Assembly: GCA_017640485.1 (NCBI GenBank)
Contig: JAEPQP010000002.1
Location: 2,036-66,035, forward strand
DNA length: 64,000 bases
Reading direction: 5' to 3'
Source of the DNA: Phycisphaerales bacterium
GTDB lineage: Bacteria > Planctomycetota > Phycisphaerae > Phycisphaerales > UBA1924
Shown: piece after piece, positions 6,410 through 58,063 of the stretch
Layout: every line of letters begins with the position of its first letter
Position numbering within the stretch: the stretch's first letter is position 1
The notes under the pieces: generated by a model
The model's database searches: none
What the model was told of the DNA's origin: nothing
The model's input: the letters and a program-made list of their open reading frames with translations, nothing else
Translations under genes and position numbers: made by a program

Positions 6410-7903
6410 ATGGACACAGATTCGGCAGCAGCCCGTATACTCGAATGCATGATCTGGCACGCAGCCGCCATCACACTCCTTATCGCAGGCATCATCCTGT
6501 TCCTCTGGTCATGGTTCTGGGATCGACCAAACTTCCGAGGCCGACCAAAGCATCGTTGCCCGAAGTGCTGGTACGACCTCACAGATTCGGCAAGCCTTCC
6601 AATCACCTGCCCCGAGTGCGGCAGAGTTTGCAAGACCCAACGATCCACCACCCGAACACGGCGTCACAAACGAACCGCACTCCTCGCAATCCTTCTTGTT
6701 CTCGCATCACCCATCGCCGCGCTCACGCCCGCGTACCACAACGGGACTCTGCTAAGCAAGGTCCCAACGGGAGTCCTCGTTCAACTCTTACCAATTACAC
6801 CCGAATGGAGAAAGCATCTTCGTGGTCCAAACCGAAACCAGAACCATCCGGGATTCGAACTCAGTCGTCGTCTGTCAGGGAACACAAAGCCCATGGCCAA
6901 CGAGGAGTATGTCGAGCTCATCAACACGATCGCCGAGGGAAACCTATTCGCAAAGCCAGGTTCACCAAGATGGGCCAAAACCACTGGTGACTGGTTCGGA
7001 AGCCAATCGTTCCGATTCGAAGACTTCGCAACTGGAGAACAGCACTACCCCGACGGCACCCCAGCCGATCAAGCCCTCCTCGACGCATTCGAAAGACTCG
7101 CCAATGTTCTCCCACAATGGGACCCCAAGACCAGAGCAGTCTGGCCAGAAGGTGAAGTCATCACACTTTGGTCCGGATACGAACACCCCAGCTGGTTCAG
7201 CAGTCAGCTCTACGAAAGCGCCACCCTCATTATCCGAGGCCATCAACCAGAACCAGAGCGAGTCGAGATCAAAGACTTCCTGAGTCACTTCCAACTCAAA
7301 GCGCGAGGAAAATCGGGGGATCACATCGAATGCGACATCACTCTCAACTACCACAGAGTCCCGCCAGACTGGGGTTGGAACCCAGAAGAACCGCTTCCAC
7401 CCATCAAGACCGAACAGTTCAGCATCAGCTGGGACATCGTCAGCACGATGGAAGACGCGGTTCGCTTGGTTGATTCACAAGAGATCCACGAAGCACTGAT
7501 CGTCCACACAGCACAAGCGATCCCGCAATCACTCGATGACTTCGAGTTCCACGAAGATTTCCTCGAGCCCCAGTTCGATCAGATCGGATTCGGAGTCATC
7601 ATCCAAGTCTACGACGCCGATGAGTTCCTCGGACAATCCGAGCACAGATGGATGGCAAACAAAGGCGAGTGGATCGGACGAATCACAAGCATGATCGGAA
7701 CGCCTTGGGAAAAATATACTGAGTACACCCAGCGAGCAGCCGACGCACTATCCCGCGGCTCGCTCCGCTTGAAGATCATCGGAGACCCGATCCTCGCGAT
7801 GGAAATCCGCGAAGCACAGACAGTCTGGAAGGGTGAAATCGACATCACCTACCAAGAAGCACTGGTGGTCATCGATCAGTATCAAGCGATGGAAGAGCAG
7901 TAA
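6410..7903 (+). CDS. membrane protein with cytoplasmic zinc-ribbon (CPKCWYDL...CPECG) and large C-terminal domain of unknown function
   Basis: ORF 6206..7903 with ATG at 6410 (alternatives 6392 and 6449). One TM helix, then RCPKCWYDLTDSASLPITCPECGRV, a second TM helix and about 380 aa with no recognisable family. Confidence 0.6.
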   Translation: MDTDSAAARILECMIWHAAAITLLIAGIILFLWSWFWDRPNFRGRPKHRCPKCWYDLTDSASLPITCPECGRVCKTQRSTTRTRRHKRTALLAILLVLASPIAALTPAYHNGTLLSKVPTGVLVQLLPITPEWRKHLRGPNRNQNHPGFELSRRLSGNTKPMANEEYVELINTIAEGNLFAKPGSPRWAKTTGDWFGSQSFRFEDFATGEQHYPDGTPADQALLDAFERLANVLPQWDPKTRAVWPEGEVITLWSGYEHPSWFSSQLYESATLIIRGHQPEPERVEIKDFLSHFQLKARGKSGDHIECDITLNYHRVPPDWGWNPEEPLPPIKTEQFSISWDIVSTMEDAVRLVDSQEIHEALIVHTAQAIPQSLDDFEFHEDFLEPQFDQIGFGVIIQVYDADEFLGQSEHRWMANKGEWIGRITSMIGTPWEKYTEYTQRAADALSRGSLRLKIIGDPILAMEIREAQTVWKGEIDITYQEALVVIDQYQAMEEQ

Positions 7904-7969
7904 CCACACTCTTCAAAATGGATCGTTCAGAATCTGCAACCATTCAGAACAGTCCCAGTACACCCCCCC

Positions 7970-9334
7970 ATGCAGCAGGGGACCACAACTCATCCTCCAC
8001 ACCCGGATCACCACCCGGATCCTCAACAGGATCAGCAGCCATCCACGCTGACCACCACCCTCCTCTCCGGCGCCATCTTCTTCTTCCTCCTCTACGGCTA
8101 CTTCCTCCTCCGCCCGCTCCGCGAAGCGATGGGTGTCCAGCGCTCGATGTCCGACCTCCGCACACTCTTCCTCATCACATGCGCCGCGTCCCTCATCATC
8201 TCACTCGCCTTCGGATCCCTCGTCTCCCGCGCCAACCCAAGGCGATTCATCACCATCGGATACCGAGCCGTCATCGCGTGCCTGCTCGTCTTCGTCCTCG
8301 CGCTCCTCACCCTCCCCGACGACCTCAAGCTCTACTCCGGGTATGTCTTCTATGTCTGGCTCTCCATCGTCAATCTCTTTATGGTCTCAGTCTTCTGGGG
8401 ATTCATGGCCGACACCTGGTCGCTCGAGCTCGCCAAAAAACTCTACCCAACCATCGGAGTCGGAGGCACCCTCGGCGCCATCCTCGGCTCATACACCGCA
8501 TGGACCACCGCCGACCTCATCGGACCCATCTGGCAAATGCTCGCCGCGTGCCTCTGCTTCGAGGGCGCGATTCAAACCATGCGCCGCGTCAAGCAGACGA
8601 CTACCCAACACCAACAACCAGACCGCTCACCACAAAACCAGCCCATCGGAGGCACCTGGCACCAAGGCGCCACCACCCTCCTCCGCTCACCCTATCTCCT
8701 CGGCATTGGTCTCTACATCACCCTCGTCGCCGTCAGCTCCACACTCATCTACTTCACCCAAGCCAACATCGTCTCCGAAGCCGAGGAAGAACTCACGCAA
8801 CGCATAGCCCTCTTCGCGCAGCTCGATCTCTACGCGCAAATAGCCACCCTCCTCGTCCAGCTCTTCGTCACCGCCAAGCTCATCAAACACCTCGGGATCG
8901 CCTTCGCGCTATCTATCATCCCCATCATCACCCTGCTCGGATTCATCGCCCTTGCGTGGGTCTCGGATCAACCCGACATCGAACCCTGGCAGGTCTTTGC
9001 CGTTCTTGCAATCTTCAGCGCTGTCCACCGTGCCACACGCTACGCGATCATCCGTCCGGCGCGCGAAACCCTCTTCTCTGTGGTTTCTCGACACGAGAAA
9101 TACAAATCTAAACCCATCATCGATGTCTTCCTCTATCGCGGAGGAGATGTCGCAGGCACCGGGATCGAGTCCGCACTCGCCGGCGCCGCTGTCGGGCTCT
9201 GGGGGATGGTGATGGTCGCCGCCCCCCTCGCCGCGCTCTGGTCGGGTCTCGCCATCGCGCTGGGAATTATGCAACACGCACGCAACCAATCAGTATCACC
9301 AGATACACAACCACCACAGGAGATCCCATCATGA
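7970..9334 (+). CDS. TLC/Npt1-like (ATP:ADP antiporter family) or related MFS-type transporter
   Basis: Polytopic membrane protein. N-terminal FFFLLYGYFLLRPLREAMGV resembles the conserved Y-x-I-L-R-P-x-R-D-x-x-G motif of COG3202/TLC-family nucleotide transporters. Confidence 0.6.
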   Translation: MQQGTTTHPPHPDHHPDPQQDQQPSTLTTTLLSGAIFFFLLYGYFLLRPLREAMGVQRSMSDLRTLFLITCAASLIISLAFGSLVSRANPRRFITIGYRAVIACLLVFVLALLTLPDDLKLYSGYVFYVWLSIVNLFMVSVFWGFMADTWSLELAKKLYPTIGVGGTLGAILGSYTAWTTADLIGPIWQMLAACLCFEGAIQTMRRVKQTTTQHQQPDRSPQNQPIGGTWHQGATTLLRSPYLLGIGLYITLVAVSSTLIYFTQANIVSEAEEELTQRIALFAQLDLYAQIATLLVQLFVTAKLIKHLGIAFALSIIPIITLLGFIALAWVSDQPDIEPWQVFAVLAIFSAVHRATRYAIIRPARETLFSVVSRHEKYKSKPIIDVFLYRGGDVAGTGIESALAGAAVGLWGMVMVAAPLAALWSGLAIALGIMQHARNQSVSPDTQPPQEIPS

Positions 9335-10527
9335 AAACCCGCCGCGAGTTCATCGGACAAGCCGGAGCAGTCACCCTCGGAGCCGCACTCACCCCCTCGG
9401 CCCTCGCCAGCGGCCTGCTCTCCAAACCAAACAAAAAACTCAACATCCTCATGCTCGGAGGCACCGGCTTCGCAGGACCTAAAATGGTCCAGCGCGCCCT
9501 CGACAACGGACACAAGGTCACCCTCTTCAATAGAGGACAAACCGCGCCCGATATGTTCCCCGACATCGAACACATCCAAGGCGACCGCTACACCGATCTC
9601 TCAGGACTCGAAAAACTCGTCGCCGACGGCCGCCACTTCGACGCCGTCATCGACACCTTCACCTATGTCCCCAAAACCGTCACCGATACGATGGACATCC
9701 TCCTCCCGATCATGAACCAGTATGTCGTGATCTCCACCACCTCCGTCTACGCGTCCCGCACCAACCCAGGGATGGATGAGAACGGCGAGCTCGCAACCGT
9801 CTCCGACGACATCGCAGCGGGAATCACCACGCACCGAGAAGTGGGGGTCCACTACGGCGCGATGAAAGCAAGAGTCGAGCAAGCCGCCGAAGACCGATTC
9901 CCAGGAAAGGTCTGCACCATCCGGCCGGGACTCATCGTGGGAGACCGCGACACCACCGGACGCTTCACCTACTGGTCCGTCCGCGCCAGTGAGGGCGGCA
10001 CCATGATCGGTCCCGGATCGGGAGAAGACTTCATCCAGATCATCGATGTCCGCGACCTCGGAGACTTCACCATCCACTGCATCGAACAACAACATATGGG
10101 CGCCTACAACGGGATCTCCCCCGCCGGACAATGGACCAGCAAAGACATGGTCGAATCCGCAACCCGCGCCGCCAAAAAGCACCTCAAGGTCGACACCAAG
10201 ATCGAATGGATCGACGAAACATTCCTCACAGAGAACGGCGTCAACGCCTGGCAACACATGCCCGCATGGGTCCCCAACTCCGCACCCGGATACGAAGGAC
10301 AAGGCCAGATCTCCACCGCCAAATCCATCAAAGCCGGACTCAAAACAAGACCACTCGAAGACTCCCACTGGAACGCACTCAACTACTACAAAACCCGAGG
10401 CCCAGAAATCCTCGCTGAACACGGCGAAGAACAACACAAAGGCTGGCTCCGCGCCATCCGAGGCGGACTCAACCCACAACGAGAACAAGAAGTCCTCAAA
10501 CTCTGGGTCAACCGCGCCAACGGTTAA
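9331..10527 (+). CDS. Tat-signal NAD(P)-binding epimerase/dehydratase (SDR) family protein
   Basis: MKTRREFIGQAGAVTLGAAL is a twin-arginine signal. LMLGGTGFAGPKMV is a Rossmann GxxGxxG motif. There is a 4-nt overlap (ATGA) with the upstream transporter gene. Confidence 0.75.
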   Translation: MKTRREFIGQAGAVTLGAALTPSALASGLLSKPNKKLNILMLGGTGFAGPKMVQRALDNGHKVTLFNRGQTAPDMFPDIEHIQGDRYTDLSGLEKLVADGRHFDAVIDTFTYVPKTVTDTMDILLPIMNQYVVISTTSVYASRTNPGMDENGELATVSDDIAAGITTHREVGVHYGAMKARVEQAAEDRFPGKVCTIRPGLIVGDRDTTGRFTYWSVRASEGGTMIGPGSGEDFIQIIDVRDLGDFTIHCIEQQHMGAYNGISPAGQWTSKDMVESATRAAKKHLKVDTKIEWIDETFLTENGVNAWQHMPAWVPNSAPGYEGQGQISTAKSIKAGLKTRPLEDSHWNALNYYKTRGPEILAEHGEEQHKGWLRAIRGGLNPQREQEVLKLWVNRANG

Positions 10528-11468
10528 CCCTCATCCACAAACTCCGCGTTGGTGTGCCGAGTGCGATCAACGAGCAGCTTAAGCAGCTCCGGCCGTGCAT
10601 AATGCCCGCTCGGATCAAAGTTCTGCCGCTCCCGATCCACAAACCCCCGCTCAAGCTCAACCACAAACACATCCTCCGTGTCCGCCTGAGGCTCAAGCAA
10701 CCAACTCCCGTCCGGATTCGCCGCCGCTGATCCGCCGTTGTGCAGGATCTCGTCCTCATCAAGGACAATCCGATCACGGTGGGGGACCGAACTAGGGATA
10801 TCGCTCGCGCGGATTAGCGTCGATGCGCTCAGCACATAACTCCGCGACTCACGCGCCACAAAGCGCGTGATGTCCTGCGTGTTCACAACTCCCCCAGGCC
10901 AGATCGCGATGTGCAGGTTCACCCCCAGCGCCTGCATCGCCGCGCGAGGCAACGGCATCCAGTTCTCCCAGCAGTTGAGCGATCCAATCAGGAACCCGTG
11001 ACAGTCGTGCGCCACCAACCCGTGCCCGTCTCCCGGCGCCCACGCCAATCGCTCCTCATACGTCGGCATCAACTTCCGATGCACACTCACGATTTCACCC
11101 GAATCATTGATCGTTACCGCGCTCGCAAAGATCGAGTGCCCACCCCGATCCATCGGCCGCTCCGCAACCCCGATCACCACCCAGATCCCGTGCTCGCGCG
11201 CCGCATCACAGATCGAATCCAGATCCCCCCGCTCGATCTGCACCGATTCCTGCAGATACAACGCGTGCAGTTCTTTCTGATCCTGCGCATCAAACCGCGC
11301 CCCGTCCGTCCGCGACAACCAGACCGGATACGCCGGGAGGAAGGTCTCCCCAAACGCCACAATCTTCGCCCCGCGCGAAGCCGCGAGCCCGATCGCGTCC
11401 ACCGCTTTCGCCGTCGTTGCTACGCGATCCAACAGTACAGGAGAAACTTGTGCCAGCGCCGCTTTCAT
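10524..11468 (-). CDS. nitrilase / carbon-nitrogen hydrolase family protein
   Basis: FGETFLPAYP (catalytic Glu region), HRKLMPT (Lys) and LNCWENWMP (catalytic Cys) form the nitrilase superfamily triad context. Confidence 0.85.
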   Translation of the reverse strand: MKAALAQVSPVLLDRVATTAKAVDAIGLAASRGAKIVAFGETFLPAYPVWLSRTDGARFDAQDQKELHALYLQESVQIERGDLDSICDAAREHGIWVVIGVAERPMDRGGHSIFASAVTINDSGEIVSVHRKLMPTYEERLAWAPGDGHGLVAHDCHGFLIGSLNCWENWMPLPRAAMQALGVNLHIAIWPGGVVNTQDITRFVARESRSYVLSASTLIRASDIPSSVPHRDRIVLDEDEILHNGGSAAANPDGSWLLEPQADTEDVFVVELERGFVDRERQNFDPSGHYARPELLKLLVDRTRHTNAEFVDEG

Positions 11469-11547
11469 GGATTCACCACCTCAATTGAAAAGGGACCCAC
11501 ATCCGTGAGCCCCTCAAGTCATCGATCATACCCGATCAAGCGCCCTA

Positions 11548-12642
11548 TCAAGCAATCGTCACCTTCTCATCCAGATACACATCCTGGATCGCGTTGAGCA
11601 GCGCCGCGCCTTCATTTCGAGGACGCTGGAACGCCTTGCGTCCCGAGATCAGCCCCATGCCACCAGCACGCTTGTTGATGACCGCCGTGGTCACCGCGTC
11701 CTTGAGATCGCTCGCGCCCTTGGACTCGCCGCCCGAGTTGATCAGCGGCGACCGACCCATGTAGCAGTTCGCGACCTGGTATCGGCACAGATCAATCGGA
11801 TGCCCGCCCTGACCCTTCTCATCGCTCGAGTTCAGATCGGTGTAGATCCCCGTGTTGAACTTGCCGTATGAAGAATCGCCCGAGTTGAGCGCCGTGTACC
11901 CGCCGTTGTTGGTCGGGAGCTTCTGCTTGATGATGTCCGCCTGGATCGTCACGCCGAGGTGGTTCGCTTGCGAGGTCAGGTCTGCTGAAGCGTGGTAGTC
12001 CACGCCGTTGACCTTGAACGCGCTGTTGCGGATGTAGCACCAAAGAATGGTCACCATGCCGTAGTCGTGCGCTTCAGCGAACATGTCCGCGACATACTGG
12101 ATCTGTGCTTCCGATTCATCGGACCCGAAGTAGATCGTCGCGCCGACCGCCGCCGCGCCCATCTCCCAGCACTGCTTGATGTTCCCGAACGGGATCTGGT
12201 TGAAGGTGTTCGGATAGGTCATCAGCTCGTTGTGGTTGAACTTGACGATGTACGGGATCTTGTGCGCGTACTTCCGAGCCGTCGCGCCCAGCACGCCGAA
12301 GGTCGAAGCCACCGCGTTGCACCCGCCCTCGATCGCGAGCTCGATGATGTTCGATGGATCGAAGTAATCCGGGTTGGGAGCAAAGCTCGCACCCGCCGAG
12401 TGCTCGATGCCTTGGTCCACAGGCAGGATCGAGGTGTACCCCGTCCCCGCCAATCGCCCGGTATTGAGAATCCGCTGGTAGTTGTTGAGCACATTCTGGT
12501 TGCGATCCGTCATCGCGACCACGCGATCCACAAAGTCCCCGCTCGGCACATGCAGCCGATCCTTGGAAATCGCAGGCGAATCAAAGCTCAGCAACGCGTC
12601 GTCCTCGAGCACCTTCGCCACATCAATCGTCAGATTCGCCAT
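11548..12642 (-). CDS. fbaB: class I fructose-bisphosphate aldolase (DhnA/FbaB type)
   Basis: [20 protein letters not shown], and length of about 365 aa match FbaB-type class I aldolases. Start is ATG 12642 with GGGAG upstream. Confidence 0.85.
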
Positions 12643-12682
12643 CCGTGTTCTCCCACCGGCGATGATCACCGGGATTCATTTC

Positions 12683-23457: not shown

Positions 23458-23640
23458 CCACCCCAGCCCAACCCCCTCCAAGTACTCAAAATCCCGCCTA
23501 ATTTCCGCAAATCCAGCAGATTACCGGATTTACGCCATCTTCACTCAACCACACCGCTCCGCATCGCCGATAGCAAAAGGTCGCGAACATACGCTCGCGC
23601 AACAACTTACACACTCCCATATGTTCCAAGGGGTACAAAG

Positions 23641-24003
23641 ATGACGACCACCAATCGACGACGCTACGAGCGTGCACCCGCCGAGATCGCCTGCAAATGC
23701 CGTCGAAGCGCCAACACCCTCTACGCCCCCGCCCAGACCATCAACCTCTCCCCAGGCGGAGCCGCCCTCGAACTCACCTCTCCAAGATCTACCCAAGTCG
23801 GCGACCGCCTCGCCCTCGCCTTCAACTCCCCGACCTGCCCCATCCTCAGCGCCAACAAAATGATCAGCGCCACCGTCGTCCGCGTCACCCCGATCAATCA
23901 CGACCGCCAACACATCGCCGTCGAGTTCGACGCCCCTCAGTTCAACCTCACTGAACTAATCTCCCCCCCATCAATCCAATCCCCACAGCGACGCGCCGCC
24001 TGA
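23641..24003 (+). CDS. PilZ domain protein (putative c-di-GMP binding)
   Basis: RRRYER (RxxxR) followed by INLSPGGAAL (D/NxSxxG) matches the PilZ motif pair. Confidence 0.7.
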   Translation: MTTTNRRRYERAPAEIACKCRRSANTLYAPAQTINLSPGGAALELTSPRSTQVGDRLALAFNSPTCPILSANKMISATVVRVTPINHDRQHIAVEFDAPQFNLTELISPPSIQSPQRRAA

Positions 24004-24010
24004 CACACGA

Positions 24011-24580
24011 TCAGAAACTCACCGAAGGCACCTCCCGCACCGTCGCTTCCTCGATCTCGAAGTACTCCGCTTTCTCAAAGTTGAACACCCCCGCGATCAG
24101 CACGCTCGGGAAGGTCTCGACCGCCGTGTTCATATCCCGCACATTCCCGTTGTACAACCGCCGCGTCGATGCGATCCGATTCTCAGTCTCCGCGAGCTCC
24201 TGCTGCAACTCGATGAACTGGGTATCCGCTTTAAGATCCGGGTATTGCTCCACAACCACAGACAACTGCTTCATCGCCCCGATGAGCATCCCCTCATCCT
24301 TTGCCTGTGATTCAGGAGACCCTTCATTCGCAACACACGCATTCCGCGCCGCGATCACACTCTCGAGCGTCTCGCTCTCGTGCGCCGCGTAGCCCTTGAC
24401 CGTGTTGACCAGATTCGGGATCAGGTCATACCGACGCTTGAGCTCCACATCAACTCCAGACCACGAATCCTTGAGGTGCTGACGGATCCGCACCAGCGAG
24501 TTGTACACCCCGACACCCCACAGCAGCACAATCAGCCCGATCGCAACCACCACTCCAAGCGTAATCCAAAGTCCAATCAT
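24011..24580 (-). CDS. LemA family protein
   Basis: N-terminal TM helix, then YNSLVRIRQHLKDSWSGVDVELKRRYDLIPNLV and RRLYNGNVRDMN, which is the classic LemA pattern. Confidence 0.9.
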   Translation of the reverse strand: MIGLWITLGVVVAIGLIVLLWGVGVYNSLVRIRQHLKDSWSGVDVELKRRYDLIPNLVNTVKGYAAHESETLESVIAARNACVANEGSPESQAKDEGMLIGAMKQLSVVVEQYPDLKADTQFIELQQELAETENRIASTRRLYNGNVRDMNTAVETFPSVLIAGVFNFEKAEYFEIEEATVREVPSVSF

Positions 24581-25359
24581 GACAGCTTCCCTTCTTCTAA
24601 ATCCTCAACCAAATAGTCAGGCCAGCGCCCAAGAAACTCCAGCGTCCAACCAAGCGACCCGACAAACCGATCCGCGTCCCAAACAGAATACCCGTCCGAC
24701 AAACAGATCCGTCCGCGCTCAATATCAATCAAGCCGGGCTCCGTTTCCAGCAAGAACTCAATCATCCGCTGATGCACAACATCATACGCGAACTTCCTGC
24801 TGTCACATTTCACATAGTACTTCTTCGAGAACTCCGAGCTCTCAAAGTCAATATCGTTCTTCCCAAACAGCGACGCGATCCGATCAAACACACCCTCCCT
24901 CCGGATCAGTAGGTCAGGCATCTGCGCATACCCCGTGTCATAAATAAAGTAACTGAACCGATGCGTCACGATCCGCGTCCTCGTCCGTGTCCGACCCTTC
25001 GAGTCCGTCGTCGTGTAGGTCTCGCGCGTCTTGTAGGTATAGTCGCCCGCCGTCACCCGCCCGCTCAGCTCCCCGTTCTCGATGATCCCAGAGATCGTGT
25101 TGTACGCCCGCTTCGCGAACCCGCGCTGGAACAGCTCGATGTGATAAAACTCCTCGTCGTGCGACGCGTTGGGTTCAGGACGAAACACCAGCCCATTCCG
25201 CTCCGCGAACGCGACCATCGCCGCGAGCCGAGCCGCCGCCCGCGCCTTCGCCTTCTCCGCTTCCTTGATGATCCAGTAGATCATCCCCACCAGCAGCACA
25301 ACGCCGACCGCCCCCAGCCCGATCGTCCCCAAGATTCCAACCGCCTCAATCATCTCCAT
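24577..25359 (-). CDS. membrane protein, DUF3137-like, translationally coupled to LemA
   Basis: ATGA overlap at 24577..24580 with the lemA start. N-terminal TM helix, FESSEFSKKYYV and FAYDVVHQRMIEFLL resemble DUF3137 proteins that commonly pair with LemA (from memory, not searched). Confidence 0.55.
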   Translation of the reverse strand: MEMIEAVGILGTIGLGAVGVVLLVGMIYWIIKEAEKAKARAAARLAAMVAFAERNGLVFRPEPNASHDEEFYHIELFQRGFAKRAYNTISGIIENGELSGRVTAGDYTYKTRETYTTTDSKGRTRTRTRIVTHRFSYFIYDTGYAQMPDLLIRREGVFDRIASLFGKNDIDFESSEFSKKYYVKCDSRKFAYDVVHQRMIEFLLETEPGLIDIERGRICLSDGYSVWDADRFVGSLGWTLEFLGRWPDYLVEDLEEGKLS

Positions 25360-25431
25360 TCATCATACTTCTTCGTAATCTGCAACACCAGATTTCACCC
25401 TCTTTTCACACGCAAACCCCTACAATACAAC

Positions 25432-26688
25432 ATGCTCTGGCAACCCTCCATCCCCGATTCCTACCACACGCTCTCCGAAGCAGAGCTCACCGCGCGCATC
25501 GAAGACCGCCGCAAACAACTCGCCACCAAACTCCTCATCCTCGGCCACCACTACCAGATGGACTCCGTCGTCCAGCACGCCGACTTCATGGGTGACTCAC
25601 TCAAGCTCGCACAACTCGCCGCGTCCGTCGTCGAAGACCGCGCCGCCGCAGGAACCCCCGTAGAACACATCATCTTCTGCGGCGTCCACTTTATGGCCGA
25701 AACCGCCGACATCCTCACACCCGACTCCGTCCAGGTCATCCTCCCAGACCTCTCCGCAGGATGCTCCATGGCCGACATGGCCGACTACGAACAAACCGTC
25801 GAAGCATGGGAGGTCATCCACGAATCACTCAAAGACCAAGGATGGACTGGACGCATCATCCCCATCACCTATGTCAACTCCACCGCCGCCATCAAAGCTT
25901 TCGTCGGAGATCACGGCGGCGCCTGCTGCACCTCCTCCAATGCCGGACAAGTCTTCGAATGGGCCATGAACGGCGGCACCGAACCCCGCAAACCAGACGA
26001 AGACATCAAAGTCCTCTTCCTCCCCGACCAACACCTCGGACGCAACACCTCCGCCGCCTTCGGCATCGATGTCGTCAACAACACCTGCGTCTACGACCCC
26101 AAGAAAACAGAACGCGGCGAACCCCTCGGCGGAGCGTCCGCCGAGCAGTTATACAACGCCGCAACCATCTTGTGGGCAGGACATTGCAGCGTCCACAAAC
26201 TCTTCGCACCAGAACACTGCGCCCAGATCCGCGAAGACAACAAGAACCTCGAAGCCGGGATCGAACCCATGCAGATCCTCGTCCACCCCGAGTGCTGCAA
26301 AGAAGTCGTCGACCTCGCCGACCTCGCCGGATCCACCGAGTTCATCATCAACACGATCAAGAACGCTCCCCCCGGATCCCGCTGGGCCATCGGCACCGAA
26401 GTCCACCTCGTCAACCGCCTCGCAAACGCCCACAAAGAGCGAGGCGTCGAGGTCACCATGCTCTCCGATTGTCAGTGCCTCTGCACCACCATGTACCGCA
26501 TCAACCAGCCCCATCTCCTCTGGATCCTCGACGGCCTCTGCGCCCTCACCCCCGAAGGCACCCCCAACAAAGACAACAAGCAAATCGTCAACAATGTCGT
26601 GAGCGTCCATCCCGAAGCCCAGAAGCTCGCGATCCTCGCCCTCGATCGCATGCTCTCCCACACCGGCACCGGCGCCGTCAAAGCATAA
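25432..26688 (+). CDS. nadA: quinolinate synthase
   Basis: ILGHHYQ, FCGVHFMAETADIL, CSMADM, VNSTAAIKAF, HCSVH and VHPEC are NadA Fe-S ligand and substrate motifs. Start ATG 25432 within ORF 24961..26688. Confidence 0.9.
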   Translation: MLWQPSIPDSYHTLSEAELTARIEDRRKQLATKLLILGHHYQMDSVVQHADFMGDSLKLAQLAASVVEDRAAAGTPVEHIIFCGVHFMAETADILTPDSVQVILPDLSAGCSMADMADYEQTVEAWEVIHESLKDQGWTGRIIPITYVNSTAAIKAFVGDHGGACCTSSNAGQVFEWAMNGGTEPRKPDEDIKVLFLPDQHLGRNTSAAFGIDVVNNTCVYDPKKTERGEPLGGASAEQLYNAATILWAGHCSVHKLFAPEHCAQIREDNKNLEAGIEPMQILVHPECCKEVVDLADLAGSTEFIINTIKNAPPGSRWAIGTEVHLVNRLANAHKERGVEVTMLSDCQCLCTTMYRINQPHLLWILDGLCALTPEGTPNKDNKQIVNNVVSVHPEAQKLAILALDRMLSHTGTGAVKA

Positions 26689-26787
26689 CCCGCGCCAAAC
26701 CCCTCCCGCAACAACCCCCCGTGTGCGGAAATCTCGCCCCCACCAAAACTTCCCGCACGATTCGAGCGATCCCCATCGAATCGCCGA

Positions 26788-27333
26788 TTGTTCCACGTGG
26801 AACATCCGCGCGACCATTCTGACCAATCCAAAACCCAGGACCTCGCCTCCGAGATCTCGCGAGCCGGATTTTTCATCGCAGGCATTGTCCTCATCGTCGC
26901 CGCCGCGATCCTCCCGCTCCGCGCCGATCTCGAATGGACCACCCACCAGCGCAACCTCGCGCTGGTTCAGGAACAAGAAAACGCCGCACGAAACGCGTCG
27001 TACCAGCAGATGATCGACGCGATCGATCAGCAAAATCCCGACACGCTCCGATTGCTCGCCCAGTCCAACCTCGGCGTGATCCCCGCCGATCACAACGCGC
27101 TGGTCGCGCCAGGCGCGAAGCCCGACCCGATGGTGTTCGAGCTTCTGGAACCGACGCCGTTGGATCGTCCGGAGTTCGCGCCGCGTTACTCTCGGCTTGA
27201 GCGTTTGGTCATGGTCCCCGAAACCAGGTTGTGGGTCATCGCGGGTGGGATGCTGCTGGTGTTGCTGGGATTGCTGCCGCAAGCGAAGCCGTCGCCGCGT
27301 GCCCAGACCCGCCGGGTCGTCCACGCCGGCTAG
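26788..27333 (+). CDS. hypothetical two-TM protein (weakly supported; overlaps parS and the strand-bias switch)
   Basis: TTG or GTG start inside parS. The translation has two hydrophobic helices and a polar middle, so it looks protein-like, but there is no family match. Codon third positions change from C-ending to G-ending midway. Confidence 0.4.
   Translation: MFHVEHPRDHSDQSKTQDLASEISRAGFFIAGIVLIVAAAILPLRADLEWTTHQRNLALVQEQENAARNASYQQMIDAIDQQNPDTLRLLAQSNLGVIPADHNALVAPGAKPDPMVFELLEPTPLDRPEFAPRYSRLERLVMVPETRLWVIAGGMLLVLLGLLPQAKPSPRAQTRRVVHAG
26789..26804. promoter_or_regulatory. parS (ParB-binding centromere-like site), perfect palindrome TGTTCCACGTGGAACA
   Basis: This exact 16-mer differs from the widely used consensus TGTTNCACGTGAAACA only by the symmetric A-to-G change that makes it a perfect palindrome. 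Only one copy was noticed in the window. Confidence 0.7.
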
Positions 27334-27341
27334 AGTGTGCG

Positions 27342-28307
27342 ATGCCATCTGCGCGATCAGTTCAGAACTATCCTGTGATTGTCGGCCCGACCGCCGGGGG
27401 GAAGACGGCGTTGTCGATCGCGCTGTGCCGAGAATACGAACGCCGAGGACTCCCAGCGGGACACGCCGTCGCGGCAGATGCGTACCAAATCTATCGAGGC
27501 ATGGACATCGGGACCGCGAAACCGACGGCCGAGGAACGCACGCAAGCCGAGCATCATCTGATTGATCTGGTTGATCCGAGTGAGCGATTCACAGTCGCGG
27601 ATTGGCTTGAGCATGCCGAGGGGGTGACGGATCGATTGATCGAGGATGGCATCCATCCGGTCGTCGTCGGCGGGACAAACCTCTATATCCAAACCTTTCT
27701 CGACGGCATGTTCCACGCGCCGGAGCCGAGCGATGAAGTCATGGCGCAGGTCGAAGCCATGGAACAAGCTGAGCGCCGCGCGAAGTTGCTGGAGGTTGAT
27801 CCAGAGGCGCACGAGCGGATCGATTCCAATGATCTGCGTCGGACCCGGCGAGCGCTCGCGGTGTATCTCCAGACCGGGACGCCGATCACCGAGCTGCAGC
27901 GCCAGTGGGATCAGGAGGATCATGCGCGCGAGGACGCGATGCTGATCGGATTGCACTGGCCGAGCGAAGAGATCAATCCGAGGATCAACGCGCGCGTCAA
28001 GCACATGATCGAGCTGGGATTGGTCGAAGAAGCTCGTGGCTTGTGGGAGTCGGGGATGCTCGGCGATCAGGCGTCCCAAGCGATTGGGTACAAGCAACTC
28101 ATCGAGCACTTCGAGGGTCGGTGCTCACTCGACGATGCGATCGAGCGGATCAAGATCGACACGCGCCGATTCGCAAAGAACCAACGCACTTGGCTCAAGC
28201 GTTTCCGGGGCAGACGGCACGGTTCGATCTGGATCGACGCACCGGGTCGAGATGCGGATACCATGGCTCATGAGATTGTGGATCGGCTGATGGAACCCAG
28301 CGGCTGA
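27342..28307 (+). CDS. miaA: tRNA dimethylallyltransferase
   Basis: VIVGPTAGGKTALSIAL (P-loop), YRGMDIGTAKP, HHLIDL and VVGGTNLY. ATG 27342. Confidence 0.9.
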   Translation: MPSARSVQNYPVIVGPTAGGKTALSIALCREYERRGLPAGHAVAADAYQIYRGMDIGTAKPTAEERTQAEHHLIDLVDPSERFTVADWLEHAEGVTDRLIEDGIHPVVVGGTNLYIQTFLDGMFHAPEPSDEVMAQVEAMEQAERRAKLLEVDPEAHERIDSNDLRRTRRALAVYLQTGTPITELQRQWDQEDHAREDAMLIGLHWPSEEINPRINARVKHMIELGLVEEARGLWESGMLGDQASQAIGYKQLIEHFEGRCSLDDAIERIKIDTRRFAKNQRTWLKRFRGRRHGSIWIDAPGRDADTMAHEIVDRLMEPSG

Positions 28308-28336
28308 CTGGGCGAGATGAAGGGACGAAAGCTCGA

Positions 28337-30055
28337 ATGGACTCTTGGCATCTGCTGCTTGATATTCTGATTCTGCTCGGCGGGGCGCTCGTGCTCGGGG
28401 TGGTGTGTGAACGGCTTCGGCAGTCGCCGATCCTTGGGTATCTCGCGGCGGGGACGCTGCTGGGTCCCAACGCGTTGCAGATCGTTTCGACCGCTGATGA
28501 GGTGACGGTGCTCGCGGAGCTTGGGGTGGCGCTGCTGCTGTTTACCATCGGGCTCGAGTTCTCCTGGCCGCGGCTCAAGAAACTCGGTTCGGCGGCGTTC
28601 GGAGGCGGGACGGGGCAGGTGCTGGTGACGCTCGGGCTCGCGGCGGGGTGCGCGATGATCCTTGGTTTGAACTTCCGTTCCTCGCTCGCGATCGGTGCGA
28701 TCGTGGCGCTGAGCAGCACAGCGGTGGTGCTCAGGCTGTTGATTTCGCGCGCCGAGATCGAGAGTGCGCACGGGCGTTTTGCGCTTGGGATCCTGCTGAT
28801 GCAGGATGTCGCGGTGGTGCCTTTGGTGCTGCTGGTGACGGTGATCGGCGAGGGTGGATCACTCCAAGAGATGAGCAAGGATATCTCGCTGGCGATCGTG
28901 GGGGCGCTCGGGCTGGTGGCGGTGTTGTATGTGCTGCTCAACAAGGTCGCGCCGAAGGTGATGGGGCTCGGCGAGATGCAGCGGAACCGGGACCTGCCGA
29001 TCTTGCTTGCGATCGTGATCGGTCTGGGTTCAACATGGGGATCGCACAAGCTCGGCTTGTCTCCGGCGCTGGGGGCGTTCGTCGCAGGGATGATCCTCGC
29101 GGAGTCTCCTTTTGCGACGCAGATGCGCGCCGATATCGGATCGATCCGTACGCTGCTGGTGACGCTGTTCTTCAGTTCGATCGGGATGCTCGGCGATCCG
29201 GCGTGGTTCCTGAGTCATCTGCCGCAGGTGCTCGGGTTTGTCGCGGCGATTGTCATCGGCAAGAGCGTGGTGATTTGGGCTGTCCTCAAGAGCTTCGGGC
29301 TTACGCATCGGCACGCGCTGGCCGCGGGAATTTGTCTTGGTCAGGTCGGGGAGTTCTCGTTTGTGCTCGCGGCGGTGGCGCGGGGGACGGTGATCAGCGA
29401 GGAGATGTTCACGCTGATTATTTCGTCCACGATTGTGACGCTGTTTTTGACGCCGTATCTGGTGGCGTTTGCGCCGAGGGTGTCGGGCGCGGTGGTTGGG
29501 GTGCTCGAACGCGCGGGGGTTGTGAAAGCGGGGGCGCTTGAGACGGTCGGGGAGCAATCAGCGGCGAGCGATCGGTTGGTGGTGATCGGGTTTGGTCCTG
29601 CGGGCGAAGCGGTGGCGCACGCGCTGGACGGGCACGAGGATCGGGTGACGGTTCTGGATCTGAACCCTTCGAGTATCCGTCGCGCCAATCAGCTGGGGTA
29701 CTCGGCGCACATCGGGAACGCGGCTCAGGCGGAGGTGCTCGAGCATGCGGGTGTTGAGAACGCGAGCGCGGTGGTGGTGACGGTTCCGGATCCCGGCGCT
29801 GCGCGGGAGATCGTGGAGCTTGTGAGGACGCTGGCGCCGGGGGTGCACATCATCGCGCGGGCGCGGTACCACCGGTTCTTCGAGGACATCCAGCGCGGCG
29901 GGGCGGATGATGTGGTGAACGAGGAGTGGATCGTGGGCGCGATCCTCGCGTCGCGTGTGCGGGCGCGTTTGCGCAAGAGCGAGCAAGTTGATGAGGCTGT
30001 GCTTGAGCAAGAGGACGACCGATCCAGCGATCAGCCGCTGGATGATCAGGACTGA
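28337..30055 (+). CDS. CPA2-family cation:proton antiporter with RCK/TrkA-N domain (KefB/KefC-like)
   Basis: About 12 TM Na_H_exchanger-type core (ILGYLAAGTLLGPNAL) followed by LVVIGFGPAGEAVAHAL, a Rossmann-type RCK N domain. Confidence 0.85.
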   Translation: MDSWHLLLDILILLGGALVLGVVCERLRQSPILGYLAAGTLLGPNALQIVSTADEVTVLAELGVALLLFTIGLEFSWPRLKKLGSAAFGGGTGQVLVTLGLAAGCAMILGLNFRSSLAIGAIVALSSTAVVLRLLISRAEIESAHGRFALGILLMQDVAVVPLVLLVTVIGEGGSLQEMSKDISLAIVGALGLVAVLYVLLNKVAPKVMGLGEMQRNRDLPILLAIVIGLGSTWGSHKLGLSPALGAFVAGMILAESPFATQMRADIGSIRTLLVTLFFSSIGMLGDPAWFLSHLPQVLGFVAAIVIGKSVVIWAVLKSFGLTHRHALAAGICLGQVGEFSFVLAAVARGTVISEEMFTLIISSTIVTLFLTPYLVAFAPRVSGAVVGVLERAGVVKAGALETVGEQSAASDRLVVIGFGPAGEAVAHALDGHEDRVTVLDLNPSSIRRANQLGYSAHIGNAAQAEVLEHAGVENASAVVVTVPDPGAAREIVELVRTLAPGVHIIARARYHRFFEDIQRGGADDVVNEEWIVGAILASRVRARLRKSEQVDEAVLEQEDDRSSDQPLDDQD

Positions 30056-30355
30056 TTAGTCGTCGAGGGAGATGGACTTGGGTCCTTCTTTGCCTGCGGT
30101 GCGTTCCATGTAGCCGTCGCCTCGTTTTTCGTATTTGGTGAATCCGAGTCGGTCGAGGTTCTCGTTGGAGAGCTGTGATTTGCCTTTCATGTCGGACCAT
30201 TTGCCGGCGATGTTTGGGGGCTGGATTACGCGCTCGACGGGACGGCCCTCGTGCTCGGTGAGCGCGTCTTCGGACATCTGCTGGATGATCTCGAAGGTGG
30301 GTTCGCCGGTGGGTTCGCCTTGCTCGTTGAGGTATTGGTAGACATAGATGGGCAT
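30056..30355 (-). CDS. hypothetical small protein (FmdB-like N-terminus lacking cysteines)
   Basis: ATG 30355. MPIYVYQYLNEQGEPTGEPTFEIIQ resembles the MPIYEY.C..CG start of FmdB-type zinc ribbons, but no Cys are present. Confidence 0.4.
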   Translation of the reverse strand: MPIYVYQYLNEQGEPTGEPTFEIIQQMSEDALTEHEGRPVERVIQPPNIAGKWSDMKGKSQLSNENLDRLGFTKYEKRGDGYMERTAGKEGPKSISLDD

Positions 30356-44739: not shown

Positions 44740-45456
44740 TTAGCTGCGGCGACGGCGGGTCGCTGCGAGTCCGCCTATTCCGAGGAGCGCGAGAGCGCCT
44801 GGGGTTGGGACATAGACGAGCTGATCTTGGTAGGTTGCGTTCGCGAGACCGACGACCCCACCGAATGAGCCCTCGCCGTTGGCGAGCGCGGTCATGAGAC
44901 CTGAGGTGATGTTTGAGAGCTCTGCGAGGATACCTGCATCCAGCGCGCCTCCGCCGACAGCGGTTGCTTGGATGTATCCAGCGTCAAGGTCGATGGATGC
45001 GACGGTGCCGTCGAAGTCGTCGACGATTTCGTAGATCACGAGTTGGAACGCTGCGGCGTATTCATCGGAGAGTGATCCGGCTTCGAGCGTTGATGATGCG
45101 GATGAGTAGAGTGCACGGATCGCGTCGGCTTTGACCATGCCCATTGGCATGATGCCTGGTGCGTCTGGCATGTCTTCGATTGGCGAGGTGTAGTACTCGA
45201 CTGCTGCGGCACCGCTGACGACTTGGGTGATGTCCACGCAGAAGGTGTAGTGGATGCCGTTGAGTGCTGCGTCGGCACCCATGGCGTTGCTGATTTCGTG
45301 CTCGAGTTCGCCGACGAAGATGTCGCGGCTGTCTGCGCCTTCAATGAGGTTGACTTCGAGTCCTGCACCTGCACTCAGGTACTGAAGGTCGAGGACCCCT
45401 GCGGACGCGGCGGATGCGATTGCGAGTGCCGAGATGGCGATGGTCATGTTTTTCAT
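44740..45456 (-). CDS. PEP-CTERM sorting-domain surface protein (family A)
   Basis: ATG 45456 (GGGAGA upstream), signal peptide MKNMTIAISALAIASAASAG, and tail VPTPGALALLGIGGLAATRRRRS. Confidence 0.8.
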   Translation of the reverse strand: MKNMTIAISALAIASAASAGVLDLQYLSAGAGLEVNLIEGADSRDIFVGELEHEISNAMGADAALNGIHYTFCVDITQVVSGAAAVEYYTSPIEDMPDAPGIMPMGMVKADAIRALYSSASSTLEAGSLSDEYAAAFQLVIYEIVDDFDGTVASIDLDAGYIQATAVGGGALDAGILAELSNITSGLMTALANGEGSFGGVVGLANATYQDQLVYVPTPGALALLGIGGLAATRRRRS

Positions 45457-45662
45457 TTTGGATTCTCCCGTAAACTTCTCTCTAGGAGGGATTTGCGCAT
45501 GCGTACACAAGCATGCGAAACTGGGGTGTGAGACCCGGTCCCATGGATATAAAGTACCCCGGAATTTCCGTTTGTACAGAAAATTCAGGTATAAACGATT
45601 GAAACATATAGACTTATGGCAAAAATTGGGTTGTTATGGGGCCTAACGGGTCCGATTCGATG

Positions 45663-45686
45663 AAAAACCCCCGATATGCGGGGGTT
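45663..45686 (-). terminator. rho-independent terminator after 45716..46459
   Basis: On the minus strand: AACCCCCG-catat-CGGGGGTT followed by TTTCA (run of 5 T including stem end). Confidence 0.65.
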
Positions 45687-45715
45687 GTGGGGGAGTTGGG
45701 GATGTGCTGGATGCT

Positions 45716-46459
45716 TTAGAAGCGACGACGGCGGCGATGGGCGATGAAGCCTCCGATCGCGAGGAGTGCGTAGGCGCCTGGTGCGGGGATCGTGACGAGC
45801 TGATCCTGTGCACCGCTGTTGGTGAGGCCGATGACACGATCGATGCCGTCGTGTTGTTGGTTGATCGCGAACATGACATCGGATCGGAGGGCGCTGAGTT
45901 GATCGAGGATCTCTTGATCCAGATCTGAGCCGTTGGTCGCGGTCACGCGGAGTGAGCCTTGGCTGAGATTGATGGAGTCTGCGGAGCCGTCGAAGTCGTT
46001 GACAATTTCCCAGACGGTGAGCTGCATCGCGGTTGCGTACGCGTTGGAGATGTCGCCGGCGAGGAGGGTCGCGGAGCTGGAGCGGTAGAGCGCACGGATC
46101 GCGTCTGCGCGTGTCGAGGACATCGGGGTTGAGTTGGATGCGGTCAGCGGGATGGACTCGATGGGCGCGGTGAGGTACTCGGCGCCGTTGCGTGAGACGG
46201 TCTCGGTGATATCGGCGCAGAATGTCCGGTGCTGACCGTTGAGGTATGAGTCGAGGCCGGTTGCGTTGGAAATGACATGGTTGAGTTCGCCTGCGAAGAC
46301 ATTGCGGGCGTTGGATTCGCCGAGCTGGATTTTGACGGACGATCCGGCGCCGGTCCCGGTGAACTGCATGTCAACGACATCGGCGCTGGATACGGCGGTG
46401 CATGCGGCGACGGCGATGATCGCTGCTGGAACGATTGAGTTCTTCTTGGTTGTGCTCAT
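45716..46459 (-). CDS. PEP-CTERM sorting-domain surface protein (family A paralog)
   Basis: ATG 46459, signal peptide, and tail IPAPGAYALLAIGGFIAHRRRRRF. Collinear with 44740..45456 (VFAGELNHVISN, TFCADIT, ADAIRALY and MQLTVWEIVNDFDG). Confidence 0.8.
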   Translation of the reverse strand: MSTTKKNSIVPAAIIAVAACTAVSSADVVDMQFTGTGAGSSVKIQLGESNARNVFAGELNHVISNATGLDSYLNGQHRTFCADITETVSRNGAEYLTAPIESIPLTASNSTPMSSTRADAIRALYRSSSATLLAGDISNAYATAMQLTVWEIVNDFDGSADSINLSQGSLRVTATNGSDLDQEILDQLSALRSDVMFAINQQHDGIDRVIGLTNSGAQDQLVTIPAPGAYALLAIGGFIAHRRRRRF

Positions 46460-46655
46460 GATGTGAATCCCCTGAGTCATGGTCGGTGTTGATCGCACCG
46501 GACGAGTGTTGGTGCCGAACTTCATTTCAAGGGTCCAATTCAGAACTGAGGAATGCTAATGGATCGCATGCGGCGGATTGATTCGAGCCGTGAATGGCTG
46601 CACGATCGTTTCAAACAGGCGCGGAGGTTCGATAAGTGGGCTTTGGGTGGACACG

Positions 46656-46685
46656 AAAAAGGCCTCCGTTTGACGGGAGGCCTTT
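46656..46685 (-). terminator. rho-independent terminator after 46712..47518
   Basis: On the minus strand: AAAGGCCTCC-cgtcaaac-GGAGGCCTTT followed by TT (5-T run overall). Confidence 0.65.
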
Positions 46686-46711
46686 CGCAAAGAGTGACTT
46701 GGGTGCAGGGA

Positions 46712-47518
46712 TTAGCTGCGGCGACGGCGTGAGGCGGTCAGGCCTGCGGCTCCGAGGAGGAGCATGGAAGCCGGTGCTGGGACGATGGACTTGTCCTTGG
46801 TGATGATGAATGCTTCACCAGCAGCAAGTGTGAAGTCCCATTGGAATGCCCAGCCCACATCGCCGATCCCGGAAGCGGTGCCGTCGAGGTTGTCGATGTT
46901 TCCATCGTTGAGCAGGTCGGACATGGCGACTGCGTTGCCCATCTGGAACGCGGTTGGCGACGGGGTCACGACGGTTTCGGAGACTGAGAAGTCGTTGTCG
47001 AACTGGCGTGCGGTGTTGCCGTTGATGATGTCACCGGAGTCATCGCTGAAGTCTCCGCCCAGGTCGAAGTCGACGAACTGGAAGAAGGAGAGCGACATGG
47101 ATGCGTTGGAGTTGTTGCGGATGATGATTTGCTCAGCGAGGTCAGCGTTTGCTGATCCTGCGGTTCCGCCGCGGAGAGTGAAGATGGTTTCGATCTGGAG
47201 ACCGTTGCCGTCGGAGTAGAGTTGTGAGAGTGCATCGACATTGTTATCCGAGAACGGGTTGGTGTCGGTGGTGAAGATGCCGTCGAGGTTGAGATTGTTT
47301 GCGTTGACGCCGAGTTCTTGGGTGTCGTTTGCACGACGGAAGTAGAACTCTTGTGCGAAGAGTTGGTTGACTCCATCGACAAGCCAATCAACTTGACCGG
47401 TGTTGGTGTCAAAGGTTGCGGTGCTGTTCGCATCTGCGAGAACATGTGTCCCGCCTGCGAGCGTCACTGATGCCATACCCGCGCACGACGCGATAGCAAC
47501 GATGGTGTTTCTGAACAT
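46712..47518 (-). CDS. PEP-CTERM sorting-domain surface protein (family B, copy 1)
   Basis: ATG 47518, signal peptide MFRNTIVAIASCAGMASVTLAGG, and tail VPAPASMLLLGAAGLTASRRRRS. Confidence 0.8.
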   Translation of the reverse strand: MFRNTIVAIASCAGMASVTLAGGTHVLADANSTATFDTNTGQVDWLVDGVNQLFAQEFYFRRANDTQELGVNANNLNLDGIFTTDTNPFSDNNVDALSQLYSDGNGLQIETIFTLRGGTAGSANADLAEQIIIRNNSNASMSLSFFQFVDFDLGGDFSDDSGDIINGNTARQFDNDFSVSETVVTPSPTAFQMGNAVAMSDLLNDGNIDNLDGTASGIGDVGWAFQWDFTLAAGEAFIITKDKSIVPAPASMLLLGAAGLTASRRRRS

Positions 47519-47741
47519 GGTAATTTCTCTCTTTCTCAAGTTCTCTCTAGATGAGCAGTCAGAACAGAACTGCGTTACTCGTCCCACTGTACCGATTGTA
47601 CTGTGGGGCAAAGTGCCAATGCAAGCATGATTTTTGAATTACAAGTGAATTGCCGAGAATAAGTTGTGAATTTTGAAGTGAACTGAGGTGCAATTCCGGA
47701 GTGCTGGGTCGGGTAATTGGGCTGTATTCATGCAGAATGAA

Positions 47742-47768
47742 CAAGACCCCGCATTGAACGGGGTCTTG
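47742..47768 (-). terminator. hairpin after 47820..48629 (weak U-tract)
   Basis: CAAGACCCCG-cattgaa-CGGGGTCTTG is a 10-bp stem. The minus-strand tail is TTCATTCTG. Confidence 0.4.
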
Positions 47769-47819
47769 TGTCGGTTTTGCTGATTGATAGAGAGCTGAGA
47801 TTGGTACTCAGCGGCCGAT

Positions 47820-48629: not shown

Positions 48630-48818
48630 GATTGTGTTCTCTCTCTCTATCTCTCTAGGGAGCAGCCAGCACGGAGCCGCTTTGAAAACCTGTCCCACTG
48701 TTCTAAGTGTACTGGGGTGTATCACCAGTTCAAGGGTGATATCTGCAATTTCGAATTAATTATCGGGGTCGCAACACATTTTGATCGGATTTTGATTGGA
48801 TAAGTGCTGTCGGGGTAT

Positions 48819-48845
48819 AAAAAAACGCCCCGGATGACCGGGACG
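48819..48845 (-). terminator. rho-independent terminator after 48877..49683
   Basis: On the minus strand: CGTCCCGG-tcat-CCGGGGCG (one mismatch) followed by TTTTTTT. Confidence 0.65.

Positions 48846-57990: not shown

Positions 57991-58063
<73 letters not shown>

Follow-up and report, generated by a model that had tools for sequence, protein, structure and literature searches.

A probable replication origin marked by a strand-bias switch inside a conserved protein-coding gene of marine Phycisphaerales

The stretch analyzed here, called the window throughout, comprises 64,000 nucleotides of a contig from a Phycisphaerales bacterium (JAEPQP010000002.1). The genome is a metagenome assembly, with NCBI locus tag JJ974_00555 and ENA accession ERZ23500363. 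Its top strand is rich in C and A up to about 27.1 kb and rich in G and T beyond that point. The change between these two states, hereafter the switch, falls inside an open reading frame (ORF) of 178 codons, ORF178, that lies between nadA and miaA and begins at a centromere-like parS site. An original prediction, made from the letters of the window, took the switch for either an uncharacterized or non-canonical replication origin (oriC) or a recent inversion breakpoint. The features that bear most directly on this choice are as follows.

1–27,084, no strand assigned: left replichore segment, top strand C- and A-rich (GC skew −0.26, AT skew +0.18).
27,085–27,230, no strand assigned: sign change of the GC skew and putative fork-divergence point (maximum-likelihood change point, pooled third-codon switch and 13-species mean skew).
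27,231–58,000, no strand assigned: right replichore segment, top strand G- and T-rich (GC skew +0.30, AT skew −0.12).
26,797–27,333, plus strand: ORF178, a conserved protein of unknown function, 178 amino acids (aa) long, which spans the switch (homologues, codon signature and an independent gene call).
26,789–26,804, no strand assigned: parS centromere-like site TGTTCCACGTGGAACA, overlapping the ORF178 start codon (perfect match and conservation).
26,689–26,796, no strand assigned: nadA–ORF178 spacer of 108 bp, the only conserved non-coding DNA near the switch (alignments across species).

The top strand has a GC skew of −0.263 over positions 1–27,100 and of +0.302 over 27,100–58,000. In 2-kb bins the skew ranges from −0.19 to −0.36 across the first 27 kb and from +0.22 to +0.46 between 28 and 58 kb; it stands at full strength (±0.3) right up to the switch, is sustained for tens of kilobases, and does not switch in the opposite sense anywhere within the 64 kb. 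Cumulative GC skew reaches its minimum for the window at 27,128, and the maximum-likelihood change point of a two-state model falls at 27,129 (2-log-likelihood support interval, 27,097–27,228). The log-likelihood rises by 1367 at this point, whereas none of 200 shuffles of 500-bp blocks gave a gain above 139. Cumulative skew, change point and shuffles thus confirm the abrupt origin-type switch predicted at about 27.1 kb, and the line-by-line base counts behind that prediction reproduce exactly save for one (line 27,181–27,240 holds 18 G and 17 C, not 19 and 16). The AT skew reverses as well, with A exceeding T to the left of the switch and T exceeding A to the right. Excess C on the left arm amounts to ∼0.155 per nucleotide and excess G on the right arm to ∼0.18, compared with a typical excess of ∼0.025 in SkewDB (PMC8941118); measured over 1–58,000 of the window, the strand bias of the clade is about 6–7 times the typical value.

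The bias is a property of the chromosome strand. On the left arm, the GC skew at third codon positions (GC3 skew, coding strand) is −0.4 to −0.76 in plus-strand genes and +0.3 to +0.6 in minus-strand genes; on the right arm the signs are opposite, and overall the values are about ±0.6 regardless of gene strand. Because this pattern follows the chromosome strand on each arm, the bias is strand-specific and independent of the direction of transcription. The GC3 skews agree with the strand-dependent codon endings described in the original prediction, although the aldolase gene that it named fbaB was a poor example of G-ending codons. That gene (11,548–12,669; DeoC/LacD family) has a GC3 skew of ∼0.02, unlike its neighbors.

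The switch sits in the 3′ half of ORF178. The original prediction regarded the ORF at this position as weakly supported, a description that does not hold: ORF178 is a conserved gene. It has 32 database homologues, 31 of them at 65–100% identity and one at 41%, and those that carry a name are hypothetical proteins of Phycisphaerales metagenome-assembled genomes (MAGs). Their alignment contains 34 invariant columns, the majority-base fractions at codon positions 1, 2 and 3 (0.85, 0.91 and 0.69) constitute a coding signature, and an independent gene-calling pipeline also predicts the gene. The translation includes two hydrophobic transmembrane-type segments, and the AlphaFold model is mostly helical with a predicted local distance difference test (pLDDT) score of 73. 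Neither Pfam, NCBIfam nor a PDB fold search returned a relative. ORF178 is devoid of DNA-binding features and of iterons.

To follow the switch across the clade, the ORF178 locus was collected from 14 GTDB species representatives as well as from contigs of JGI, ENA and Logan; among the relatives are the chromosomes OZ252285.1 (2,927,844 bp) and OZ246976.1 (2,901,844 bp) and contigs from JGI that are 2.88 and 2.92 Mb long. The 2.9-Mb contigs of these relatives were read over ±10 kb around ORF178, and the skew of the window over its 64 kb. In 15 of 20 related loci the maximum-likelihood change point lies 55–264 bp before the end of the ORF178 match, with a skew of −0.26 to −0.40 on the left and +0.16 to +0.37 on the right. 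These loci, from GTDB species representatives and JGI contigs, comprise three contigs or chromosomes of 2.9 Mb among them. Two further loci have their change point just downstream of the match (L015, with a weaker skew, and L026, with only 116 bp of left flank). The other three are the distant, weak-skew loci L010 and L027 (41–42% identity) and L021, whose left flank is only 0.56 kb long. In 13 species with ∼10 kb of flank, the mean skew stays between −0.25 and −0.31 until 200 bp short of the ORF178 stop codon, is 0.02 in the final 200 bp of the gene and reaches +0.17 just past the stop. Pooled third codon positions of 17 orthologues change from C to G at alignment column 109, which corresponds to position 27,097 of the window; some species switch ∼140 bp later. 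Across the clade, therefore, the codons of a single intact gene favor C endings in its 5′ half and G endings in its 3′ half, and many species show the same junction in assemblies from ENA, NCBI, JGI and GTDB.

The polarity of the switch was examined through substitutions polarized in close species trios (e.g., L017 and L018 with L005 as the outgroup). Rates are given on the G-rich strand with both arms pooled. C>T changes occur at 0.032 per site versus 0.020 for G>A (1.64-fold, p = 0.01), G>T at 0.021 versus 0.0027 for C>A (7.8-fold, p = 1.5 × 10−7), and T>G at 0.022 versus 0.005 for A>C (4.4-fold, p = 9 × 10−5). These asymmetries are mirror images on the two arms; strand-asymmetric mutation is therefore ongoing and flips at the switch. 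The lagging-strand template carries the leading-strand sequence, and the leading strand is rich in G and T; to our knowledge, the excess of G over C on the leading strand holds for essentially all bacteria. Experiments reportedly find C>T in excess on the lagging-strand template (Bhagwat et al. 2016, PNAS). Since the C>T excess marks the lagging-strand template, which on the right arm is the top strand, the fork there runs rightward, as it does on leaving an origin. The signs of the GC skew and the AT skew are likewise both those expected for forks leaving the switch, so that three measures support the earlier reading of a negative-to-positive change as an origin signature. The single tRNA gene of the window, tRNA-Ala(GGC) at 57,991–58,064 on the plus strand, is co-directional with a rightward fork; a scan of 18 related loci for tRNA genes as a polarity marker found none. 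The strand-asymmetric, transversion-dominated spectrum suggests that an unusual replication-linked mutational process, possibly of the oxidative-damage type, operates in this clade.

A parS site had been predicted about 300 bp from the switch, and a perfect one is present. The sequence TGTTCCACGTGGAACA matches the parS consensus TGTTNCACGTGNAACA, is the sole perfect copy in the 64 kb, and lies 0.3 kb to the left of the switch. Of 18 related loci, 16 carry it at the same place with at most one mismatch; it is missing from the locus in the distant relatives L010 and L027, whose skew is weak. The window copy is identical to parS2 and parS3 of Pseudomonas aeruginosa, which are experimentally validated high-affinity ParB sites near the oriC of that species (PMC4368675), and parS sites are characteristically origin-proximal (PMC7333895). 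The resemblance to parS1–4 of P. aeruginosa (PMC4368675) extends from this 16-bp sequence to its place near an inferred origin and its conservation across species. It differs in that the 64 kb of the window hold one site and no cluster, that this site overlaps the ORF178 start codon, and that parAB is not nearby. Two lesser matches, a parS-like sequence with three mismatches (TGTTCCAAGGGGTACA at 23,622–23,637, just upstream of pilZ) and a perfect half-site (ATGTTCCACG at 27,708–27,717, inside miaA), are compatible with chance, given that 0.4 matches with three or fewer mismatches are expected per window.

The spacer upstream of ORF178 contains a conserved 9-bp palindrome, ATCGCCGAT (26,780–26,788), which adjoins parS, and further upstream the conserved blocks CAACAACCA…CGTGCGC and ACGATTCGAGCGATC. 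Its sole conserved structure is the parS palindrome, and covariation is absent. The spacer is the best candidate for the binding of an initiator or a regulator.

Gene order provides a further view of the switch, for which three more features are needed.

23,641–30,355, no strand assigned: conserved core pilZ–lemA–h260–nadA–ORF178–miaA–kefB–h99, 6.7 kb (gene-order comparison and gene tables).
25,432–26,688, plus strand: nadA, quinolinate synthase, left neighbor of ORF178 (Pfam PF02445, NCBIfam NadA and synteny).
27,342–28,307, plus strand: miaA, tRNA dimethylallyltransferase, right neighbor of ORF178 and first gene of the G-rich arm (Pfam PF01715, TIGR00174 and synteny).

In the window and in its closest relative, L014, the core is flanked by purB…h111 on the left and by genes for a chorismate-binding protein…ppdK…trpC on the right. 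In ten other species these flanks are exchanged in side and orientation, while the order nadA–ORF178–miaA is conserved. As read from gene order, the exchange is equivalent to an inversion of the 6.7-kb core in the lineage of the window. The ends of this inversion lie ∼3.5 kb to the left and ∼3.25 kb to the right of the switch, an almost symmetric arrangement, and neither end (∼23.5 kb and ∼30.37 kb; the parS-like TGTTCCAAGGGGTACA is found at the left one) shows a skew discontinuity. The switch is thus where the inversion pivots rather than where it ends. The classical rearrangement that preserves strand bias is said to be an inversion placed symmetrically around an origin or a terminus. As in such X-alignments (Eisen et al. 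2000; Tillier & Collins 2000), the ends of the core inversion are nearly equidistant from the switch, the flanks change arms, and each gene keeps its strand bias; the inversion differs in being very small (6.7 kb) and in being seen here within ±10 kb. Insertions near the switch are tolerated in some species (L006 at 7194–9842 and 12028–12676; L007; L008 at 11015–11701), and the parS–ORF178 unit is intact each time. One of them, encoding an FG-GAP protein of 882 aa, separates nadA from the ORF178 spacer, and another adds an IS200-like Y1 transposase (weak Pfam match) and a K+ channel gene between miaA and kefB.

The switch is most probably a replication origin, that is, the fork-divergence point of the ∼2.9-Mb chromosome in a clade of marine Phycisphaerales, with cis elements that are non-canonical or have escaped recognition. 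We propose that two forks diverge from the 3′ half of ORF178, at 27.1–27.2 kb of the window. If the G+T-rich strand is taken as the leading strand, and hence as the lagging-strand template, the negative-to-positive switch would be the start of leading-strand synthesis in both directions. ParB would load at parS and segregate the newly replicated origin, and an initiator may bind in the conserved nadA–ORF178 spacer, in ORF178 itself, or in both.

Several observations weigh against an origin at this site. The first is the span over which the skew was followed, 64 kb in the window and ±10 kb in the relatives, out of a chromosome of ∼2.9 Mb. Among the ∼50 proteins of the window (−27/+37 kb around the switch), none has a Pfam match to ParA or ParB, nor to Bac_DnaA or DNA_pol3_beta. 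A tblastn search with E. coli DnaA likewise found nothing in the window or in 27 related loci. The absence of dnaA and dnaN predicted from the window alone is thus borne out, although it spans ∼1% of a 2.9-Mb chromosome on each side. In SkewDB (PMC8941118), over 80% of chromosomes have dnaA no farther than 5% from the origin derived from skew; for 2.9 Mb this corresponds to 145 kb, a distance well outside the window.

The DnaA-box scan used the E. coli consensus (TTATCCACA-like 9-mers), which may not be that of Planctomycetota. In 17 species it found no box with at most one mismatch from ∼750 bp to the left of the ORF178 stop codon to 400 bp to its right; boxes with up to two mismatches occur at ∼2.7 per kb against a background of 2.5 per kb, and hence form no cluster. 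No 6–8-nucleotide word other than the parS arms is enriched near the switch in 13 species, and the direct and inverted repeats between 26.3 and 27.8 kb are short, chance-level matches that include no iterons. Duplex stability and AT content reveal no AT-rich or low-stability DNA-unwinding element (DUE). The 40-mers at 27,080–27,140, at −67 to −69 kcal/mol, are near the most stable 1% of the window, and the highest AT content of any 30-mer in the region is 53–77% (usually 57–67%), found in the nadA–ORF178 spacer in most species. The lack of DnaA boxes and of an AT-rich element, already suspected in the original prediction, is thus reproduced quantitatively in up to 17 species. Rfam and tRNA scans returned nothing near the switch, and promoter and terminator consensus scans there were uninformative.

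The position of the switch also counts against an origin. It lies inside a coding sequence, whereas a canonical oriC is non-coding and a few hundred base pairs long. The non-coding DNA flanking ORF178 in the window amounts to 108 bp upstream and 8 bp downstream, and in the relatives to as much as ∼190 bp upstream and, in most, up to ∼60 bp downstream. The conserved non-coding spacer lies in fully C-rich sequence, ∼300 bp leftward of the switch, a placement that simple symmetric initiation at the spacer does not explain. Lastly, gene orientation around the switch shows no co-orientation bias, an observation that cannot tell an origin from a terminus. In sum, set beside a canonical oriC with DnaA boxes and a DUE, the locus has the skew switch and lacks the boxes, the DUE, the non-coding location and the linkage to dnaA and dnaN, the last being frequent but not obligatory.

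If the switch is an origin, then the lack of a recognizable DnaA-box cluster, iterons, a DUE or a long non-coding stretch would mean that its DnaA sites are strongly diverged or embedded, or else that initiation is non-canonical. The stronger proposal, that the forks diverge within a conserved protein-coding gene and that the origin is specified by a diverged or different initiator or mechanism (cryptic embedded sites or DnaA-independent initiation), is tentative, and we consider it possible rather than likely.

Known origins offer partial parallels. E. coli oriC, between mnmG/gidA and mioC, and Caulobacter Cori, near hemE, are skew-minimum origins that are not adjacent to dnaA. Like them, the present locus places an origin-type switch among housekeeping genes unrelated to replication, with no adjoining dnaA or dnaN. 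The two known origins are non-coding stretches of 250–500 bp with several DnaA boxes and an AT-rich DUE; here, by contrast, the switch falls within coding DNA, no spacer exceeds 108 bp (∼190 bp in relatives), and neither boxes nor a DUE are detectable. Bipartite origins flank a gene, as in B. subtilis (incAB–dnaA–incC) and H. pylori (oriC1–dnaA–oriC2). The present locus similarly has a gene between an upstream conserved non-coding region and the point at which strand asymmetry changes, and by analogy this suggests that an initiator could bind upstream of ORF178, with opening or priming downstream. It differs from the bipartite origins in that the intervening gene encodes a small membrane protein and not DnaA, and in that the spacer downstream of ORF178 is only 8–60 bp in most species, its sole shared motif being a CTAGAGT/CTACAGT element before miaA. 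Finally, some origins lie inside coding sequence, such as λ ori in gene O and the pT181 origin in repC. These share with the proposed origin a replication start within an ORF that stays functional; their host genes encode the initiator and carry iterons, whereas ORF178 encodes two transmembrane-type segments and has no iterons.

Among the other explanations, the one that survives best is that forks do diverge at the switch but that it is one of several origin-type switches, a secondary origin for example, rather than the only or main origin, or that it belongs to an ordinary DnaA-dependent oriC with cryptic, diverged boxes in the spacer and the 5′ half of ORF178. We consider this improbable. 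The limited reach of the survey around each ORF178 leaves room for it, as does the use of an E. coli consensus in the box scans. In most species the AT content of the region is highest in the spacer, and the 145 kb that corresponds to the SkewDB distance for dnaA (PMC8941118) reaches beyond the window. A secondary origin, however, accords poorly with a skew that holds at ±0.3 up to the switch and for tens of kilobases, as at a main replichore boundary, and cryptic boxes accord poorly with the absence of any repeated motif from the spacer and from ORF178 in each of the 13 species.

Less probable again is a terminus, i.e., a dif or fork-fusion region in a lineage whose leading strand is rich in C and A, with forks converging at the switch. 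A terminus needs no DnaA boxes, AT-rich element or intergenic space, may sit inside a gene, and can likewise be the pivot of symmetric inversions; gene orientation does not separate it from an origin. We nevertheless judge it very unlikely. Under the rule that the leading strand has more G than C, the GC and AT skews are both of origin type, and the sign changes from negative to positive rather than the reverse. The per-site excess of C>T falls on the G-rich strand, as expected of a lagging-strand template. A search limited to a proteobacterial-type pattern (CATAATN6TTATGTNAA, up to three mismatches) found no dif-like 28-mer near the switch, and a conserved perfect parS lies 0.3 kb away, such sites being typically origin-proximal (PMC7333895).

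The weakest alternative, a recent inversion breakpoint or an assembly chimera joining opposite replichores, has a negligible probability: although the pilZ…h99 core is inverted in the lineage of the window relative to most relatives, the two halves of an intact ORF178 carry opposite third-position bias in 17 species, the junction recurs across assemblies and in other species, long complete chromosomes included, the inverted segment has the switch at its center and no skew discontinuity at its ends, and no opposite switch occurs in the 64 kb, so that the conserved junction effectively refutes both a breakpoint and a misassembly. Of the two possibilities left by the original prediction, the breakpoint is thus rejected, and the uncharacterized or non-canonical oriC is supported by the conserved switch, its polarity, parS and the pivot.

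Several neighboring genes and elements are of interest in their own right. The linkage of nadA with ORF178 is retained even in the relatives at 41% identity. Read from 24,961, the nadA ORF spans 575 aa and overlaps h260 on the minus strand; the start at 25,432 (418 aa) is favored by relatives and by the independent gene call. The conserved CTAGAGT/CTACAGT motif contains a −10-like hexamer, TAGAGT, and lies 5–8 nucleotides before the miaA ATG (27,330–27,344 in the window; 16 relatives). In the window, the ORF178 stop codon TAG falls inside this motif. Its position suggests that the miaA transcript may be leaderless or nearly so, beginning just where ORF178 ends. Pfam and NCBIfam confirm the gene names leuS, purB, nadA, miaA, ppdK, trpC and dnaE and the KefB-like exchanger, all assigned earlier from the translations. 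Six tandem paralogous ORFs on the minus strand (44,740–50,749) had been described as PEP-CTERM genes; the three that were scanned have no Pfam match at E ≤ 0.001.

At the right edge of the window, after tRNA-Ala(GGC), the GC content falls from ∼0.60 to 0.48, and the GC skew is only +0.14 (57,991–64,000). An ORF of at least 1,920 codons, running from 58,240 to the end of the window, encodes DUF4011, AAA_11/AAA_12 helicase, MTES_1575 nuclease and DUF3320 domains. The segment 57,991–64,000 looks like a horizontally acquired island inserted at the tRNA gene, and it is possibly defence-related.

A two-hairpin repeat also recurs in the related loci, often just after stop codons. It consists of CCTCCCCCG, 4–8 nucleotides of any sequence, CGGGGGAGG, TGTC, a stem-loop with a stem of variable length and sequence, and GACGGAGGGGG. 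Copies are found in L017 (7997–8338, 9809–9860 and 19854–19900), L006 (4931), L023 (6316), L024 (7667), L025 (10075) and L026 (3228). One L017 copy lies between nadA and the ORF178 spacer, and a degenerate copy lies upstream of the spacer in L014. The core pattern is very widespread, occurring in at least 120 metagenome contigs with GC contents of 0.34–0.73, and corresponds to no Rfam family. Each of the 12 copies in the skewed clade is oriented so that its G-rich strand coincides with the C-rich strand of the chromosome.

A literature search on replication origins of Phycisphaerae or Planctomycetes yielded nothing specific. The strong skew of this clade allows a flip in strand asymmetry to be mapped unusually finely, to ∼100 bp, from sequence alone, and the flip maps inside a gene, ∼300 bp from the nearest conserved non-coding DNA and parS. 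If the switch is indeed the origin, a fragment of ∼0.7 kb (26.69–27.34 kb) would be defined in which the requirements of a planctomycete origin could be tested. The locus would also provide an anchor for rotating and quality-checking MAGs and for peak-to-trough estimates of growth rate in an abundant marine group. Likewise, the clade would allow strongly asymmetric G>T, T>G and C>T mutation to be studied as it occurs in nature.

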